Below are positions 1-38,399 of a DNA stretch of 64,000 nucleotides, piece after piece. The stretch comes from an uncultured Bacilli bacterium. GTDB lineage: Bacteria > Bacillota_I > Bacilli_A > RF39 > UBA660. Position 1 is the stretch's first letter, and every line of letters begins with the position of its first letter. The notes under the pieces were generated by a model. The model did no database searches. It saw only the letters and a program-made list of their open reading frames with translations, and had not been told where the DNA came from. The position numbers and the translations under genes are program-made. The stretch covers positions 402,994-466,993 of the forward strand of contig CAKORJ010000001.1 of NCBI GenBank assembly GCA_934101575.1. The letters are read 5' to 3'.

Positions 1-1977
1 TGATATTACTATAATTATTTTGTTTTTATACTTTGATATTATATTTTTTAATATTTGTCCTTCTTCGGAAATTGATATTTCATTAAATACTTCATCTAGT
101 ATTAGGACATCTTTAAAGTGTAAGAGACCTCTTGCTAGGATTATTTTTTTTCTTTCTCCTCCACTTATATTTGATCCGGATTCTTCTATTACATAGTTTA
201 AATTAATATTTTTTTGGGATAGAAATTCATCTAATTGTGTTATCTTGGCTATTTCTTTTATTTTTTCTTGATCTTTTGTTATAAGTTCTAAATTATCTTT
301 TATTGTTCCTTGAAAAAGTGTTTCATTTTGACTTATATATGTTATATTGTCTCTTAAAAAAGATATATTTAGGTCTTTAATATTTATATTATCTATTAAA
401 ATATTTCCTTTTTCACTATTATAATACTTTAGTAATAATTTCATCATAGTTGATTTACCTAGACCAGATTCTCCAGTTAGATATATAATATCTCCTTTTT
501 TTATTTCAAGACTTATGTCTTTTAGTAAATATTTATTATTTGTTTTATAAGATATATTTTTATAATTTATCTTATTTATTGATGAAAAGTTTGTTTTTTC
601 TTGTACTTCTTCTTTTACGTCTAAGCAATCTAGGACTCTATCTATAGAGGTTTCATATACTTTATATAATACGATGCTTTCTGTTATATTATTTAGTAAT
701 CCTATTATAAGATAAAATATTGATGAATATAGTACTATGTCTAAATAATTCATGTTTGTTTTTATTATTATTAATATAGAAAACATTATATATATTATAT
801 AAGAAGCATCTGTTAAAAAAGATATCAGGAAATTATAATTATAGTTTTTTGTATTATATATTTTTTCTTGTTTTAATGATTCATTATAGTTTTGATCTAA
901 TAGAGTTGTAATTTTTTTACTTATATTTAAGTTTTTTATTGTTTCAAACGATGTAATATGACTCAGAATTAAAGAGGTATATTTTATTTTACTTTGTTTA
1001 TATTTTATAAATGCATCATTAAATATATATTGATATTTTTTTGTTATTATATATAGTATTAATAATACTAGTGCTAAGTATAGTCCTATGTATATATTCA
1101 GAATAGATGTGTAGATAATTATTACTATTATTAGTATTAAATCTACGGATGATAATATAAATACTTTTGTTATTACTTCCTTAAAATTTTCTATATCCTC
1201 GACTAGGGTTAATAGTTCTCCGGATTTTTTTGTGATGAAGTATTTGTAAGGAAGGTTAAATATATGACTTATTACTTTTTTTGTGGTATCATGGTCAATT
1301 TTTATATTCAACTTTAATACTAGTTTATTTTTTAAATAGTACAATATATTTTTTATAATTATTAAGGTGATGAATGAGACTGTTATTACGATTAGATATG
1401 ACGCGTTTTTGTAATAAACTAGTACTGTTTTTAAATAATAGTTAAATATTAGTGATAAAAGTACACAAAATATGGATAAGATAACTGTTTTTATAATTAT
1501 TTTTTTATGTTCTTTTGTTATGGCTAATATTTCTGCTTTGAATCTTTTACTTTTTGTTTTCTTTTTCTTTTTTCCTTCGAATATAAGAAATATATCTGTT
1601 GTTATATTATGGAACTTTTCAAATGAAAGTGTTTTTATGCCATCCTCTGGATCCATTACTTTTATTGTTTGTTTCTTTTTATTTATTTCTAATATTACTA
1701 TAAAGTGAAACATGTTTTCATTTTTTATTGTGTGTGCTATAGCTGGTAGCTTATCTATGTTTTCTAGTTGAGATCTTACACCATAAGCATTTATTCCATA
1801 ACACTTACTTATTTTTATTAAATCATATGCTGCATAACCACAGTCTTTTTGTTTTACTTTACTTAATATTGCTTCTCTGGATGGTTTTATTCCATAATAC
1901 ATAAGAACTGTCATTATACTTGCTATTCCACAATCTGTGTAACTTTGTTGAAGTACATAGTCATAACTTTTATTCAT
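1..1977 (-). CDS. ABC-type peptide/bacteriocin exporter with N-terminal C39 peptidase domain (partial, C-terminus beyond left edge)
   Basis: Manual translation of minus strand from ATG at 1977-1975 (GGAGG RBS at 1983-1987 rc). N-terminus MNKSYDYVLQQSYTDCGIASIMTVL carries the C39 Cys motif. Multiple TM segments follow, and Walker A GESGLGKST lies near coordinate ~450. Absent from the ORF track only because it is cut by the window edge. Confidence 0.7.
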   Translation of the reverse strand, partial: MNKSYDYVLQQSYTDCGIASIMTVLMYYGIKPSREAILSKVKQKDCGYAAYDLIKISKCYGINAYGVRSQLENIDKLPAIAHTIKNENMFHFIVILEINKKKQTIKVMDPEDGIKTLSFEKFHNITTDIFLIFEGKKKKKTKSKRFKAEILAITKEHKKIIIKTVILSIFCVLLSLIFNYYLKTVLVYYKNASYLIVITVSFITLIIIKNILYYLKNKLVLKLNIKIDHDTTKKVISHIFNLPYKYFITKKSGELLTLVEDIENFKEVITKVFILSSVDLILIIVIIIYTSILNIYIGLYLALVLLILYIITKKYQYIFNDAFIKYKQSKIKYTSLILSHITSFETIKNLNISKKITTLLDQNYNESLKQEKIYNTKNYNYNFLISFLTDASYIIYIMFSILIIIKTNMNYLDIVLYSSIFYLIIGLLNNITESIVLYKVYETSIDRVLDCLDVKEEVQEKTNFSSINKINYKNISYKTNNKYLLKDISLEIKKGDIIYLTGESGLGKSTMMKLLLKYYNSEKGNILIDNINIKDLNISFLRDNITYISQNETLFQGTIKDNLELITKDQEKIKEIAKITQLDEFLSQKNINLNYVIEESGSNISGGERKKIILARGLLHFKDVLILDEVFNEISISEEGQILKNIISKYKNKIIIVIS

Positions 1978-2137
1978 TTTACCCTCCTCATATATATAAT
2001 TAGTGTAAAATGACAAAATGACCTAGGTTTTTTTATAAAAAGCTATAAAGTTTTATAAGAAAAGATGATACTTTGTATATCATCTTTGGTTTTTGTTATC
2101 TAGCAATAAATACTATTATAATGATTAATGTTTATTC

Positions 2138-28990: not shown

Positions 28991-29431
28991 ATGTTTAAAA
29001 AATATAAATGGCTTATTATATTACTAGTTGTAATTGTTTTACTTATTGCTGTTTCTTTAATATTTTCTGAAGATGATGAGAAATATATTCATGATATTAG
29101 TTTAAGTGAAGTATCTAGTAAAATTAAAAATGGCGATAGTTTTATACTTTATATTAAACAAACAGATTGTGAACATTGTAAGGCTTTTACTCCTAACTTT
29201 ATTGCTGCATTAAGTGAAAGTAACCTTGAAGCTTATTCTTTGAATATTTCTGATTTATCTGATGAGGATAATGAAAAGTATGAAGAGATGTTTGATGTTG
29301 ATGGTACTCCTACTGTATTATTCTTTGATAATGGTAATGAAAGTTTAATTAGGATTGAGGGAGAACAAACTAAAGCTAGGATAAAATCTAAGTTTGAATC
29401 TGTTGGGTTTTTAAAAGAGACTTCTAAATAA
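28991..29431 (+). CDS. thioredoxin-like (CxxC) secreted/membrane-anchored protein
   Basis: N-terminal TM helix then a CEHC redox motif in a thioredoxin-fold context. 146 aa. Confidence 0.6.
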   Translation: MFKKYKWLIILLVVIVLLIAVSLIFSEDDEKYIHDISLSEVSSKIKNGDSFILYIKQTDCEHCKAFTPNFIAALSESNLEAYSLNISDLSDEDNEKYEEMFDVDGTPTVLFFDNGNESLIRIEGEQTKARIKSKFESVGFLKETSK

Positions 29432-33250: not shown

Positions 33251-33373
33251 TTTTCCCCACTATATTCCACTTCCTACCACAATTATAGTATTATGAACAA
33301 ACTTTGTAAATAGCTATTATTGTAATTTTATGTCATATATAAGAAACAAGAACATTTGTTTGTAAAGTTTTAT

Positions 33374-33401
33374 GTAAAGAAAAAGATCGAAAATCGATCT
33401 T
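33374..33401 (-). terminator. rho-independent terminator after large pilin-like gene
   Basis: Perfect palindrome aagatcga-aaa-tcgatctt followed by a T-run on the minus strand, 5 nt after the stop. Confidence 0.55.
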
Positions 33402-33405
33402 AATA

Positions 33406-35181
33406 TTAGCATCTACCTGGGTCGGTGCTTCCGTTGTAATAATAAGTGTGAACAATATCACTTGGTGAGGTATATATATTACCTGCTCTATCTTTGATTT
33501 GCATTCTAGAGTTAACTGTTATTCTAGAATTTCTGGAAGGGAAAATATTATAGTGTGTAATTCTAATATGGCTTGCTTTTCCTTGAATTGTTGTGGCCCA
33601 GTCGGCTTCAGCCATACGAGTGTAGGCAGATTTATATGAACATAAATAAGACTTACTGCTACAACGCGGACAATAACTATAACAATGTCTCCATCTATAA
33701 ACATCAATATTAGAGCCACCATCATCTTTCATGTACATATAAAATTGGTATTCATTACTTGTTTTTTGATGGAAACAATGTCTATACACGGTTGGAGGAG
33801 TTATATCTTGATATATGTTGGTTCTACAAGGACTATTGTTACAAACTTTAGATGTGTTACCTGCTCTATCTGTAACTACTATATACATTACCAACTGTCT
33901 ATTTGTTCTTGCCCATTTTTTTGTAGCTTGATTTGCTGTTGGGGTGCTTGACCAATCTTTATATTCAGTTTCTGTTTCAGATAACTTATATACTACATTT
34001 GTTGGATCTACTCCTGAGTAAGAATCTTGGTATGGTATTGTTACTGTTATATCTTGGTTAGTCCAATTGCCATTACTGGAATTATTTACTCTTCCTATTA
34101 CTGGTGGTGTTCTGTCTAGTTTTGTACCTATTGTTGCAGATTTTGTTTTGTCATTTTTTGATATTGCAACTATTTTATTAGTTTTGTCTCCTTCTTCTGT
34201 TAGCCATAAATATTTGTTACCTGTTATAGTTTCTGTATTATTAACTTTTACTTCTTTAAAGTAGTTTTTATTATAAGTTAGTTTTACATATACATATCCA
34301 TTTGTCCAAGAGCCATCATATTTTTGTAAACTTGATAATTCTGTTTGAGTGTATCCTGTTGTTTTATGTGAGTTGTAACTTGATTCGTCAACTAAATATT
34401 TTTCTGTTTTAAAATTAGGATCTTCTGGAATTGTAAATTTAAGTTGTTCTCCGCATTCTCGTTGAAAAGAAGCACTGTTTTGAACAAGAACTTTATATGT
34501 TCCGTTTTCTTCTATTTTTATTGTTTTATTGATACTTTTTTTGCCTTTATCTGTGCCTTCAAATATACTTTGTGTACTAATTTTACCGTTATATTTTTTT
34601 TCTAATAATATATCTGTTATAGATCCTTTATTTGTTTCGGCTGTTATAGTTGTTTGTAATATTCCATTTTTTATTTCTGTACCTGTTAATGAACAATTTA
34701 TATTTGTTTTTTCTTCTGGTTTATCAGGGTTAGAGGGATTTTCTGGGCTTGTAGGTGTTTTTAAGTTGCAATACTCTTTTTCTTTTTCTGTTGTTATGTA
34801 ATTTTTTTCTTTACATATTAAACATGGATAATAATTAATAGTATCATTTTCGTATACTGCAGTTACATAACTTTGATTTGTACAATCGTTTTGATCTGCA
34901 TCTTGAAATGTACCTGTTATATATTTTTGTGTTGCAAGCTCTTTGGCTGTTATTTGTTTTATATATATACCATCTTTTTGCGGTTGCTCACTTTTGTGTT
35001 CTGAATAATAGTTCTTTCCTGCTAATGTTAATGTCTTTTTGACATTTTCTTTATATTCTTCCTTGCTTGAGCTTACATATTTACTTATGCTTGGTATTGT
35101 TACCCCTGCTAATATTCCTATTATTGCTATTACTGCTAAAAGTTCTACCATTGTAAAGGCTTTTTTGTTTTTGAATTTCAT
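33406..35181 (-). CDS. large modular type IV pilin-like protein (class III prepilin signal, Cys-rich C-terminal module)
   Basis: N-terminus KKAFTMVELLAVIAIIGILAGV (G/FTxxE prepilin peptidase site plus hydrophobic helix). 591 aa. C-terminal 150 aa has about 14 Cys. Confidence 0.65.
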   Translation of the reverse strand: MKFKNKKAFTMVELLAVIAIIGILAGVTIPSISKYVSSSKEEYKENVKKTLTLAGKNYYSEHKSEQPQKDGIYIKQITAKELATQKYITGTFQDADQNDCTNQSYVTAVYENDTINYYPCLICKEKNYITTEKEKEYCNLKTPTSPENPSNPDKPEEKTNINCSLTGTEIKNGILQTTITAETNKGSITDILLEKKYNGKISTQSIFEGTDKGKKSINKTIKIEENGTYKVLVQNSASFQRECGEQLKFTIPEDPNFKTEKYLVDESSYNSHKTTGYTQTELSSLQKYDGSWTNGYVYVKLTYNKNYFKEVKVNNTETITGNKYLWLTEEGDKTNKIVAISKNDKTKSATIGTKLDRTPPVIGRVNNSSNGNWTNQDITVTIPYQDSYSGVDPTNVVYKLSETETEYKDWSSTPTANQATKKWARTNRQLVMYIVVTDRAGNTSKVCNNSPCRTNIYQDITPPTVYRHCFHQKTSNEYQFYMYMKDDGGSNIDVYRWRHCYSYCPRCSSKSYLCSYKSAYTRMAEADWATTIQGKASHIRITHYNIFPSRNSRITVNSRMQIKDRAGNIYTSPSDIVHTYYYNGSTDPGRC

Positions 35182-35276
35182 ATGTGACCTCCTATAGCTT
35201 CTTATATATGTAGTATATAATATTTTTTATTTGTTTTCAAGAGAGAAAAAAGAAATACAAGCTATTAACTTGTATT

Positions 35277-37328
35277 TTAATAATGCCAACAAGAATATCT
35301 TTGTTTGCATCCACAACTTTTGTAGTAATACTGTTTGCAACTTCCTCGGTAGGTATATGTTGTTCTTGCACATTTATTTAATGTATATCTGTATTTTGAA
35401 CATACTTTTTTTGATCCTCTTTTGTTCCAATCTACACATTTCGATGATACTTTTTTGTATCCTCCGACTGTGCTAGCATTACAAGATGATACCATTGTTT
35501 TTCCTATACAACAACCTGTTCCTATTTGATATCCTCCGCTTGTCCAATAATATTTATAACCTGTATTATAATAATATTGTTTGCATCCATTTGTGCAGTA
35601 TTTTATTTCTTTACAACTACAAGAACTATGTGGTGAATATTCTTGTACATTATATGCTTTTGAAGTACTTGAGGTATTTCCAGCATTATCTTTACACACT
35701 GAACTATATTTGGCATTTCTTGCTGCGCTTGTTATTTTAAAACTTCTTGTTGTTTGGCCATTTACTAGAAGACTAGATACATAGCTTCCTCCTTTATCGG
35801 AGCAATTTATTGTTAAGCTCAATGGTGCTTTGTACCAATCACTTCCTCCTTTTGTCCCGTTTGGTGTATATGTTATTGTTGGGGCGATAGAATCTACTCT
35901 TATATCTTTTGACTTTACTTTGTCATTTGTCCTTTTTGTTGTTTTTACAAATCCTTCATTTATTATAATATTATCTGTTCCGTAACTTCCATTTTTTGGT
36001 TTATATGTTATGTTGTATATTACTTTGTTTTTTTGATTTTGATTTTCTTTATCGTTTCTTGTTATATTTGATATAGTTCCAAGGTTTTTATTTGTAGTTA
36101 TTTTTGTTTTATCAACTGATGCTTTTATTCCATCTTTTACATAGCATTCTACGGCTATTGTTCTCTGTTTGTTGGTTCCTATCGCACTATACCATAAGTT
36201 TTTATTATCTTCATCTATTATACAATATGGATTATCATCATCTTTCATTTGTATTTTAACTTCTTTTTCACAAATACCTTCATTACTTGCTTCATCCATT
36301 ACATGTCCATAGTAAGTAGCATCTTTAGTATTTGTTATATTTTTTGTTACTGTATCTGTTCCTGTTACTGTTACTTCATTTGGAAAGCTTAGTGCACCAT
36401 ACATTTTTTCATTATTATCAATAACTTTTCTTATATCTTCATTGCTACTATAGTTATCTTCTGGTTTTAAAGTTAATGTTTTTTTATTTGGTAACTGAGT
36501 TAAACTTAAAGTACATGATGGTTTGTCATTATCTATTATAAAACTTGCGCATGGCTTAGAATAATTGTTACCTGTATCTATTATTGTTACATTATATGTT
36601 CCGTTTTCAAGGCTTTTGGTTTTAATTATGTTTATGCTTTGTATTTCTTCAAATGTTTTTTTGTTTGTTCTTATATAATATTTTTTCTTTGTTTTTTGAT
36701 TTTCCACTTCTATGGCTGCTATTTTACCTAGTTTGCCCATACTATTATAGTGATCATTTATACTGTTTATAAATAGTTTTTTGGGATTGAATACTTTGTT
36801 ATTATATTCTTTATGTCCATTATAACTTGGATTACTACATGTTGGTTCTATTGTATCTTCCCAATCTTTTCCTTGACATACTGGATCTTCTTTACTGTAA
36901 TTTATTGTTGTTCCCTTACCTTCACATATTAGACATGCATGCCATTCATAGTTTTCTTCGTTTTTATTATCTCTTTTTACATATACATAGCTTGGGCTAC
37001 AACTTCTTCCTTCTGAATCTACAAAATCTTTTGATATTAAATTATTTGTTTGGATTTCTGGTAATGATACTGTGCTATATGATTTTTGTTTATATAATCC
37101 TCGGTAGTCTCTTGTTGGAAGTTTTGATTTGTTATTTGAATAGTATTCTTTTCCCGATAATAATAATTGCGTTTTTAATTTTTCATTATATTTGTCTTTT
37201 CCCTCCGTGACATACTTTGATACCATTGGTATTACTACAGCGGTTAGTACTGCTAATATTACTATTGCAATTAGTACTTCGACCATTGTAAAGCCTTTTT
37301 TCTTTTTATTTTTCATATAATCCTCCAT
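35277..37328 (-). CDS. large modular type IV pilin-like protein (paralog, 683 aa, extremely Cys/Tyr-rich C-terminus)
   Basis: N-terminus KKGFTMVEVLIAIVILAVLTAVV. Shares ACLIC and DxAGNTS motifs with 33406..35181. C-terminal 120 aa has about 20 Cys. Confidence 0.65.
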   Translation of the reverse strand: MEDYMKNKKKKGFTMVEVLIAIVILAVLTAVVIPMVSKYVTEGKDKYNEKLKTQLLLSGKEYYSNNKSKLPTRDYRGLYKQKSYSTVSLPEIQTNNLISKDFVDSEGRSCSPSYVYVKRDNKNEENYEWHACLICEGKGTTINYSKEDPVCQGKDWEDTIEPTCSNPSYNGHKEYNNKVFNPKKLFINSINDHYNSMGKLGKIAAIEVENQKTKKKYYIRTNKKTFEEIQSINIIKTKSLENGTYNVTIIDTGNNYSKPCASFIIDNDKPSCTLSLTQLPNKKTLTLKPEDNYSSNEDIRKVIDNNEKMYGALSFPNEVTVTGTDTVTKNITNTKDATYYGHVMDEASNEGICEKEVKIQMKDDDNPYCIIDEDNKNLWYSAIGTNKQRTIAVECYVKDGIKASVDKTKITTNKNLGTISNITRNDKENQNQKNKVIYNITYKPKNGSYGTDNIIINEGFVKTTKRTNDKVKSKDIRVDSIAPTITYTPNGTKGGSDWYKAPLSLTINCSDKGGSYVSSLLVNGQTTRSFKITSAARNAKYSSVCKDNAGNTSSTSKAYNVQEYSPHSSCSCKEIKYCTNGCKQYYYNTGYKYYWTSGGYQIGTGCCIGKTMVSSCNASTVGGYKKVSSKCVDWNKRGSKKVCSKYRYTLNKCARTTYTYRGSCKQYYYKSCGCKQRYSCWHY

Positions 37329-37427
37329 ATTTTATATGTTAATTTTAACTTTTGTGACTATTTTTGTCAATATTTGCTATTATAATATAAAAAAGAAATG
37401 AAGTTTTTGTAAAATGTTTCATTTCTT

Positions 37428-38399
37428 TTAATTTAGATTTTTTAGTTCTTCAACAGAAATACCTGTACATTCTGATATTATGTTTATGTCTAAGTTTTTA
37501 TTTAACATCTGCTTGGCTATGGATAATTTACTTTCTTTAATACCATCTTCTCGGCCTTCTTTTTGTCCTTTTCTCAGTCCTTCTCTCAGTCCTTCTTCCA
37601 TACCTTCCTTAATTGCTTCGTTCTTTAAAGTATTTATTACCATTTCATTATCTTTTTCTGGTGATATTACATTTACAAATTCTGTATCATTATTTAATTC
37701 TTCTACATTATCCATATACTTTTTCATAAACTTATATCCTTTCTCTTTATACAAAACATTTAAATCTTTCATATTTAATCCAAGCATCAAGAAATGACTA
37801 TAGTTTAATGCCTTGTTTCTATCACCATGATACCATATATTTAGTAATAAATCCATATTTATTTCTCTTATTAACATTCTATCACAGTACTTTATTCCTT
37901 TCTCTGATTGTACATAATATTCTGTTAGTATTTCCCCCTTTATTCCTTTTCCCCATGTTATATTAAGTAAGATATGAAGTGGTACATTATCATATGAATC
38001 TCCTCTTGATACACTATTTGAAAACACACTTGATAAATATGCTAGATTTCTTATTGGAAGACTTGTATAAAAACCATTATTAATCTCTACTATTATATTC
38101 CCTATATCTGTTTTTACATTTATATCTAAAGTCTTACTTTTTATAGAAAACTCTTTTTTAGGTAATTCATTTGGAATTATTTTATATGACTTTATTTCTC
38201 TTTCTAAAGCATATTTTAAAAAATATTTAAATACTTCTTCATCTCTAGCCACGGCATTTTTAAATACCGCGTCATATCTTGCATCATAGAATGGTTTCGC
38301 CATCAAGATTAACACCTCCATATGCATTATATATAAGAATAAATTCCATGTAAAATGACCATTTTTATCTTTTAACACAAAAAATGTATAATAAAACAA
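37428..38399 (-). mobile_element. Rpn-family PD-(D/E)XK nuclease / putative transposase (YhgA-like)
   Basis: C-terminal repeated GxxxG/E motif EGMEEGLREGLRKGQKEGREDGIKE followed by the ISECTGISVEELKNL tail typical of the family. True start probably the internal MAKPFYDARYDAVFK. Confidence 0.6.

Follow-up and report, generated by a model that had tools for sequence, protein, structure and literature searches.

A tandem pair of giant proteins with a modular type IV pilin architecture in an uncultured gut member of Bacilli

Described modular pilins and related systems

Modular type IV pilins with grafted adhesive modules form an established class, and more than 1,200 of them in 264 architectures have already been reported, so the design principle is known (PMC8179133). 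PilB and PilC of Streptococcus sanguinis, carrying a vWA module and a lectin module, respectively, are studied examples (PMC8179133, PMC9934059). Here, we describe two tandem genes on the minus strand of a 64,000-nt stretch of DNA (hereafter, the window) from an uncultured, endospore-forming, low-GC gut member of Bacilli. Their products are designated pilin A (683 or 679 amino acids (aa), depending on the start codon) and pilin B (591 aa). On balance, we favour the view that the pair encodes modular type IV pilins of a type IV filament, which are likely sticky subunits displayed on that filament. The window has a GC content of about 28% and encodes spore germination genes, and the host, as a spore-forming member of Bacilli, is presumably a monoderm without an outer membrane.

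Like PilB and PilC of S. sanguinis, the two proteins combine a small class III pilin module with non-pilus modules, belong to a monoderm host and are proposed to be filament-displayed adhesins. The S. sanguinis proteins, however, carry one vWA or lectin domain and are encoded in a pil cluster, whereas here three or four immunoglobulin (Ig)-like domains are followed by a Cys-rich module without a recognizable signature, and the genes are orphans located by mraZ. CofB, a minor pilin of the type IVb pili of enterotoxigenic E. coli, also consists of a pilin module and beta-rich, signature-less extensions, which are thought to be displayed at the tip (PMC8179133). The succession of a pilin module and beta-rich extension domains without sequence signature is common to CofB and the present pilins, but CofB belongs to a diderm type IVb system, is encoded in a pilus operon and forms a trimeric tip. 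PDB profile and protein homologue searches found no sequence relationship to CofB.

The Com pilus of monoderms comprises ComGA/ComGB/ComC with the pilins ComGC–GG (PMC10790768). The present system resembles it in that only a minimal ATPase/platform/peptidase machinery was seen in the clade and in that both pilin N-termini gave weak ComGC and ComGE matches. In contrast to Com pilins, the best ComGE score was 34.8 bits (cut-off 49) and the ComGC scores were 28.6 and 22.5 bits (cut-off 75), no comG operon was present in the window, and the proteins are 4–5 times larger. The assembly ATPase discussed below also reached 474 and 459 bits with the GspE/PilB models, against 264 bits with ComGA (cut-off 300). 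Judged by equivalog cut-off and operon context, the two proteins do not appear to be Com pilins. They also differ from the pseudopilins of type II secretion: the GspG scores were 24.9 and 23.5 bits (cut-off 88.85), with a match to the N-terminal helix only, and neither the equivalog cut-offs for GspG/H/I/J/K nor a gsp operon suggest such an assignment. Sortase-anchored pilins and MSCRAMM adhesins differ in turn, as the C-termini here (...SCWHY and ...DPGRC) have no LPXTG motif and no hydrophobic tail, and the N-termini are of class III, where those proteins would have a Sec signal peptide; by sequence, the pair would not be classed as sortase-dependent pilins. The best structural matches were the extenders of SiiE, the Aeromonas Lap/RTX adhesin and GhpA, in which tandem beta-sandwiches likewise distance a distal binding module from the cell; these proteins, however, are non-pilins exported by type I or other secretion and share only 10–15% identity with the present ones.

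Architecture and conservation of the two proteins

Giant pilin A is encoded at 35277..37328 (minus) and giant pilin B at 33406..35181 (minus). The first-pass annotation had called two tandem open reading frames (ORFs) at these coordinates, and both were recovered intact, although the larger protein is more likely 679 than 683 aa long. A second ATG at 37316 gives a 679-aa pilin A with the 8-aa leader MKNKKKKG, and it is the likelier start because GGAGG lies 5 nt upstream and the 679-aa form is present in public assemblies, where its exact sequence is on record in 37 contigs. Pilin B has the leader MKFKNKKA ahead of the predicted cleavage site, and 46 indexed blocks of the public assembly collection contain its exact sequence, with contigs of up to 0.7 Mb. 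Both genes are real: they are kept in relatives and are under overall purifying selection, with a ratio of nonsynonymous to synonymous substitution rates (dN/dS) of 0.27–0.28. A six-frame motif scan of the window found no third prepilin-type ORF.

The class III signal of type IV pilins (PF07963, TIGR02532, IPR012902) was recognized by a short basic leader, Gly (rarely Ala) at −1, Phe or Met at +1, Glu at +5 and a profile score above the cut-off. Both proteins carry a predicted signal of this kind. With a slash at the predicted cleavage site, the N-terminus of pilin A reads KKKG/FTMVEVLIAIVILAVLTAVVIP (Gly at −1, Phe1, Glu5, Pro22) and that of pilin B NKKA/FTMVELLAVIAIIGILAGVTIP (Ala at −1, Phe1, Glu5, Gly14, Pro22). 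The bit scores of pilins A and B were 34.5 and 26.3 for PF07963 (curated cut-off 21.2) and 27.4 and 24.8 for TIGR02532 (curated cut-off 16.3). The class III prepilin start K-K-x-F-T-M-V-E read earlier was right, as both KKKG/FTMVE (A) and NKKA/FTMVE (B) score above the cut-offs. Glu5 is invariant in both family alignments, while Pro22 is invariant in the pilin A family and nearly so in the pilin B family; both residues are retained at 30–40% overall identity within the families. Pilins A and B are paralogous over the first ~150 residues only (38% identity).

The pilin module of pilin A (36849..37316, minus; residues 5–160) comprises the leader, Phe1, Glu5, Pro22, a long alpha-1 helix and beta strands. 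That of pilin B (34762..35181, minus; residues 1–140) comprises Ala at −1, Phe1, Glu5, Gly14, Pro22, a helix at residues 11–61 and strands. AlphaFold2 models were built on the family alignments. In pilin B, they placed the helix at residues 11–61 and strands at residues 74–120, with a predicted local distance difference test (pLDDT) score of ~73–88 over residues 41–140; in pilin A, a helix was predicted at residues 15–69, with low pLDDT over the module. Based on these models, both proteins have the predicted hydrophobic helix and beta sheet of a pilin, pilin A at low confidence. The PDB profile matches of pilin B fall nearly all on pilin N-termini (PilA, geopilin, GspG and PilE1).

Each module contains four invariant Cys residues, at positions 110, 132, 135 and 151 in pilin A (H-A-C-L-I-C) and at positions 100, 120, 123 and 138 in pilin B (P-C-L-I-C), which could form two disulfides or a zinc site. 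The pilin A family also has an invariant His, two positions ahead of C-L-I-C. Two internal motifs had been thought to be shared by both proteins. DxAGNTS does occur in both, but ACLIC occurs only in the larger protein, the smaller having PCLIC, so that the common part is CLIC.

The stalk of pilin A (35634..36848, minus; residues about 161–565) was modelled as four Ig-like beta-sandwich domains, the last with DNAGNTS. All four beta-sandwiches are confident (pLDDT mostly 80–95). In pilin B, a Pro-rich linker and three Ig-like beta-sandwiches, the third with DRAGNTS, occupy 33802..34761 (minus; residues 141–460); the mean pLDDT of the model is 80.7, and that of the three sandwiches is 85–96. The Foldseek matches of the pilin A stalk were chains of Ig-like or cadherin domains, namely bacterial GhpA and SiiE and animal nectins and protocadherins, and the fold searches with whole models returned only generic matches of Ig, fibronectin type III (FnIII) or cadherin type, adhesin stalks and extenders included. 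The models thus suggest a modular-pilin architecture, with a pilin module and three or four non-pilin Ig-like domains past residue ~160. The earlier description of the pair as modular type IV pilins with adhesin-like extensions is borne out by the class III signal, Glu5, Pro22 and the Ig-like chains matching adhesin stalks.

The C-terminal Cys/Tyr-rich module of pilin A (35280..35633, minus; residues 566–683) ends with C-W-H-Y. The C-terminal domain of pilin B (33409..33801, minus; residues 461–591) is predicted to be beta-rich and contains a Cys cluster (HCYSYCPRCSSKSYLC), a second DRAGN and Cys as the last residue. In total, pilin A has 26 Cys residues, 14 of them in the last 125 aa, and pilin B has 14, with 6 in the last 125 aa; of the earlier counts, that of about 14 for the smaller protein was correct, but that of about 20 for the larger was too low. 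Cys and Tyr account for 11.2% and 16% of the last 125 aa of pilin A, versus 0.78% and 4.6% in 25 window genes. Exported proteins of Gram-positive anaerobes are usually Cys-poor, so a Cys-rich module is unusual in such a setting. The C-terminal modules had no Pfam (E ≤ 1), NCBIfam (E ≤ 1) or PDB profile match. The sole stray match was that of a related non-pilin protein, sub-threshold, to a model of Cys-every-fifth ribosomally synthesized and post-translationally modified peptides (RiPPs).

In the pilin A family, the module is built of 13-residue units with the consensus A-C-G-[VC]-x-[ST]-Y-K-[ST]-C-x-[TN]-S, in which the two Cys residues are 8 residues apart. The units flank a Cys-containing insert of 60–125 aa, and the end is always C-[WY]-H-[YF]. 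Pilin A of the window represents the minimal version, with one C-x7-C unit per side and 102 residues between the unit starts. The numbers of units on the two flanks (range 1–6) differ by at most one in 28 of the 29 representatives (r = 0.80, a value that is suggestive rather than a statistical test, the sequences being related). These near-equal numbers fit a hairpin in which the flanks would pair and the insert would form the tip. A profile of the module gave 35 matches among 1.84 billion representative proteins. Among the full-length matches whose N-terminus is intact, the majority are giant pilins; three others are non-pilins that carry long repeat arrays, and two of these three have Sec-type signals. 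The module was thus seen mostly on type IV pilins. AlphaFold2 (14 sequences) gave a pLDDT of ~40 and no confident fold for the last 118 residues of pilin A. As a tentative idea, one that we hold to be possible but would not call probable, the module of the pilin A family may be an undescribed extracellular fold with paired C-x7-C flanks, a disulfide-zipped hairpin, the insert as a binding tip and closure by C-[WY]-H-[YF], with the filament perhaps consisting solely of giant, scattered modular pilins that diversify rapidly within species.

The identity of the pilins is 85–86% where that of the flanks is 96–100%, and 39–42% where that of the flanks is 66–92%. The dN/dS values given above for the pilins compare with 0.03–0.09 for flanking genes. 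By part, dN/dS was 0.14 for the pilin module of A, 0.08 for that of B and 0.14 for both C-terminal modules; together with the family alignments, the latter value shows that the Cys-rich ends are conserved and under purifying selection. This conservation bears indirectly on a direct role that the extra modules may have in a filament function such as adhesion. In the linker and the first Ig-like domains it rose to 0.56–1.0 (0.56–0.67 in the first two domains of pilin A). The membrane-proximal Ig domains are therefore relaxed or diversifying, and constrained ends with a fast stalk are the pattern expected of functional exposed surface proteins.

Assembly machinery and competing explanations

For cleavage, filament incorporation, filament position, adhesion and the chemistry of the Cys-rich modules, we infer the following course. 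Each precursor would be inserted into the membrane through its class III signal, and a prepilin peptidase would cut after the Gly or Ala at −1. A minimal machinery encoded elsewhere in the genome (a PilB/GspE-type ATPase and a T2SSF platform) would incorporate the protein via its N-terminal helix. The pilin module would then act as the filament anchor and the three or four Ig-like domains as a spacer, while the Cys-rich C-terminal module would be the distal working part, most likely an adhesive ligand-binding element held by disulfides or metal.

It had been stated that no PilB, PilC, PilD or PilM genes adjoin the pair. Pfam scans of the window's larger ORFs indeed found none of the four, so the statement is true for the 64 kb, but the impression of orphan genes that it conveys is misleading. 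In all nine kinds of locus examined (loci from relatives are labelled L001–L037, L016 being from a congener and L001 from a closer strain), the pilin relatives are orphans among housekeeping genes, such as after rplQ, between efp and spoIIIAH, after a LytR gene and after dnaE. As a machinery-free neighbourhood is the rule in the clade, its absence here says little. An apparent pilus operon upstream in L010 was actually yqfD-ybeY-dgkA-cdd-era-recO. In L007 (10001–12346), the gene for the giant pilin is flanked by efp and a solitary spoIIIAH. The corresponding part of the Bacillus subtilis chromosome contains the spoIIIA operon, the first two products of which are similar to secretion ATPases and platform proteins; the position in L007 is possibly a coincidence.

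An assembly ATPase could be linked to the pair through contig sizes. For the exact pilin A, the exact pilin B and the ATPase P0099 alike, the longest contig measures 706,636 bp, and in two additional cases a pilin A variant and an ATPase variant agree in this length, at 708,198 and 445,154 bp. Because the sizes of the longest contigs are identical, we infer that the ATPase locus (L019–L022) belongs to the window's species and that a PilB/GspE-type ATPase is encoded in the same genome as the pilin pair. The ATPase is under strong purifying selection (dN/dS 0.05–0.07), and the P0099 locus adjoins two more large pilins with class III signals. In L019–L022, the adjacent pilin of about 630 aa with leucine-rich repeats (LRRs) is 54% identical, with a synonymous divergence (dS) of 0.53, between contigs with 100% identical ATPases (dS 0.02), which looks like allelic replacement rather than point mutation. 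A 320-aa protein near the small pilins in L019, considered as a platform candidate, was identified as YlbJ.

Further components were found in congeners. In L016, genes for a GspE/PilB-type ATPase, a pilin of 626 aa with LRRs and a pilin-like protein of 238 aa lie 5 kb from the pair, and this trio adjoins priA in other species. L023–L025 encode, ~6 kb from the ATPase, a 259-aa A24 prepilin peptidase and a 451-aa T2SSF platform protein. The A24 peptidase is present in the congeneric loci L023–L025 and L027–L031, and the T2SSF platform also occurs in congeners. In L028 (2746–5301; Ga0247611_10025380), pilC and pilD are followed directly, in the same orientation, by a gene for an 851-aa modular pilin of a different family; this was the only direct linkage of machinery and a giant pilin seen in the clade. 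A scan of JGI data for the congener PilD gave 10 loci, none of them from Ga0257045, a sample with a near-identical pilin, and none from the window's species, as judged by a Lon identity of 72–79%.

Several observations weigh against a filament-borne role. The residue at −1 in pilin B is Ala instead of Gly, the 64-kb window contains no type IV filament gene, and AlphaFold2 confidence is low for both the pilin module and the C-terminal module of pilin A. The link between the pilins and the ATPase relies on identical contig sizes, and the pilD-pilC position of L023 is held by unrelated genes in L019–L022, where neither the peptidase nor the platform was found. Every ORF with a class III signal in the clade loci encodes 219–1138 aa; a short major pilin was not seen in any of these loci. 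Finally, the subunit that caps a described tip complex is without Glu5 (PMC10191384). Both pilins keep this residue, which makes a strict tip-cap position doubtful, and they would more probably sit beneath the cap within a tip complex, or be dispersed among the subunits of the shaft.

The strongest competitor, which we nevertheless consider rather unlikely, is that the two proteins are membrane-anchored surface proteins that are never polymerized. The pilin-like N-terminus would then be only an export signal and a single-helix anchor, whether cleaved or uncleaved, and the stalk would span the wall, which three or four Ig-like domains could in principle bridge in a Gram-positive cell. The Cys-rich module would thereby be exposed on the cell surface with no filament involved. 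The orphan position of the pilin genes among housekeeping genes in every locus examined agrees with this explanation, as do the lack of a short major pilin in the clade loci and of a peptidase or platform gene in the readable stretches of the species (L019–L022). The retention of Glu5 and Pro22 at low overall identity speaks against it. Pro22 matters for filament assembly and not for anchoring. The same holds for Glu5 (PMC10191384). In addition, the whole pilin module is strongly constrained (dN/dS 0.08–0.14), and a conserved, strongly selected assembly ATPase is indicated in the same genome.

It is very improbable that the pilins are accessory adhesins, for mating-pair formation, of the neighbouring conjugation-type type IV secretion system (T4SS) cluster. 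This cluster, with VirD4, a VirB4-like ATPase, TrbL-like and T4SS-pilin-like proteins, is located ~5–14 kb from the pair and keeps its position in L001, L017, L018 and L037. It is, however, separated from the pair by the dcw genes from mraZ to PBP2B and by the thioredoxin gene, and a T4SS role is unlikely because the congener L016 has the pair without the cluster there. Around the pilin relatives at other sites, the adjoining 10 kb contain no T4SS genes, save one weak T4SS_pilin match (L014), and class III signal peptides are a feature of type IV filament systems rather than of type IV secretion. The cluster itself (19715–28825, minus) encodes a VirD4 coupling protein, a VirB4-like ATPase, a PrgI-like protein, an 870-aa TrbL-like protein and three paralogous small T4SS-pilin-like proteins, each ending in a Cys pair. 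It is located between the spore germination operon and the thioredoxin/dcw genes and is absent from this place in L016.

That the pair is cargo brought in recently by a mobile element, of which the adjacent Rpn/PDDEXK_2 gene would be the mark, is just as improbable and is contradicted by the data. The first-pass annotation had seen this neighbour as a hint of acquisition, and an Rpn-family gene does lie directly upstream; the distribution of the pilins is also very narrow (4 loci in 185,579 species genomes). In the congener L016, however, the orthologous pair (709 and 556 aa) sits between yqeY and mraZ without any Rpn gene, with flanks 66–92% identical, and in L001 only a 91-aa Rpn remnant remains at the pair's site. 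Between the window and L001, the pilin dS of 0.26 lies inside the flank range of 0.17–0.27. The GC content of the pair is like that of its surroundings, and tblastn searches of phage and plasmid collections gave no matches to the pilins. Based on the pair without Rpn in L016, the remnant in L001 and the equal dS, the Rpn gene is an insertion and the pilins are not; the pair is ancestral at the yqeY-mraZ site, and the Rpn gene comes and goes between strains. Two Rpn/PDDEXK_2 genes are present in the window, at 37428–38399 and 60434–61399; the first is full length in the window and in L017, a 91-aa remnant in L001 and absent in L016.

The idea that the diversity-generating retroelement (DGR) at 61551–63140 writes the Cys/Tyr-rich C-termini as its variable regions is refuted: a reverse transcriptase, Avd and a template repeat are present in the same window and the Tyr/Cys/Ser/Gly-rich ends resemble DGR variable regions in composition, but the template repeat matches only 63904–63999 (64 of 71 non-A positions), the pilin coding strand scores 28 of 71, the same as shuffled sequence, and the C-terminal modules are conserved parts of the pilins. 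The DGR (61551–64000, minus) includes the reverse transcriptase (61551–62567), bAvd (62548–62883), the template repeat (about 63045–63140) and the variable region (63904–63999). Its mismatches are almost only at template adenines, and its target gene is cut off by the end of the window. Between the template repeat and the variable region, there is a small ORF (63221–63631) that weakly matches MutS_I.

Neighbourhood, distribution and significance

A separate promoter-like site precedes each of the two pilin genes, and a hairpin with a T-run comes after each; all of these are consensus matches only. The site upstream of pilin A (37342..37370, minus) reads TTGACA-17-TAAAAT, and that upstream of pilin B (35212..35240, minus) reads TTGAAA-17-TATACT. 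An AT-rich hairpin with a T-run, read from the sequence, is located at about 35244–35276 (minus), just past the pilin A stop and ahead of the pilin B promoter-like site. A terminator-like hairpin with a T-run (33383..33401, minus) directly follows the pilin B stop codon and keeps the mraZ promoter-like site (33282–33310) apart from the pilin pair. The tRNA and Rfam scans of the window gave no matches.

Pfam and NCBIfam scans placed mraZ, the Rpn-family gene and a thioredoxin-like gene where they had been reported. The latter (28991..29431, plus) encodes a membrane-anchored protein of thioredoxin fold with C-E-H-C (PF00085, PF13098), annotated as PedC-like on orthologue records. It is located ~4 kb from the pair and is kept adjoining PBP2B in L001, L016, L017 and L037. 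It is possible that this protein serves as an oxidoreductase for exported Cys-rich proteins; no specific tie to the pilins was seen. At the start of the window (1–2022, minus), an ORF running off its edge appears by sequence to encode a bacteriocin-type ABC exporter with an N-terminal C39 peptidase domain, and the exporter and the PedC-like thioredoxin (28991–29431) together may indicate that a peptide with disulfides is exported.

Among 5.8 billion clustered proteins, 15 homologues of pilin A and 34 of pilin B were found, all of them metagenomic; the few named ones are labelled "MAG: Bacilli bacterium, type II secretion system protein" (MAG, metagenome-assembled genome). Three of the 4 loci found in the scan of species genomes are in MAGs labelled "Bacilli bacterium", which come from the gut of rabbits and humans (Hadza). 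For the exact match of pilin B, the places shown are metagenome assemblies in ENA, including one of a Hadza gut sample. With this sequence in 46 assembly blocks, Hadza samples included, the species is common in human gut metagenomes.

As the modular pilin design is known, what is undescribed here is one end-piece, the C-terminal module of pilin A. Four features are new: a multi-Ig stalk combined with an unannotated, extremely rare Cys-repeat module whose C-terminal tetrapeptide is invariant; genes that are consistently orphans and scattered; a clade apparently devoid of small pilins; and strong diversification. The Cys-repeat module is a compact extracellular one, very rare and unannotated, and would extend the list of modular pilin architectures by one. 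Since filament genes are scattered in this clade, the lack of machinery nearby is weak evidence. The fast-evolving stalks suggest immune or phage pressure. To our knowledge, the type IV filaments of gut commensals have barely been studied. If the two pilins are indeed filament-displayed adhesins, they would be candidate host-, mucus- or partner-binding factors of this uncultured lineage.

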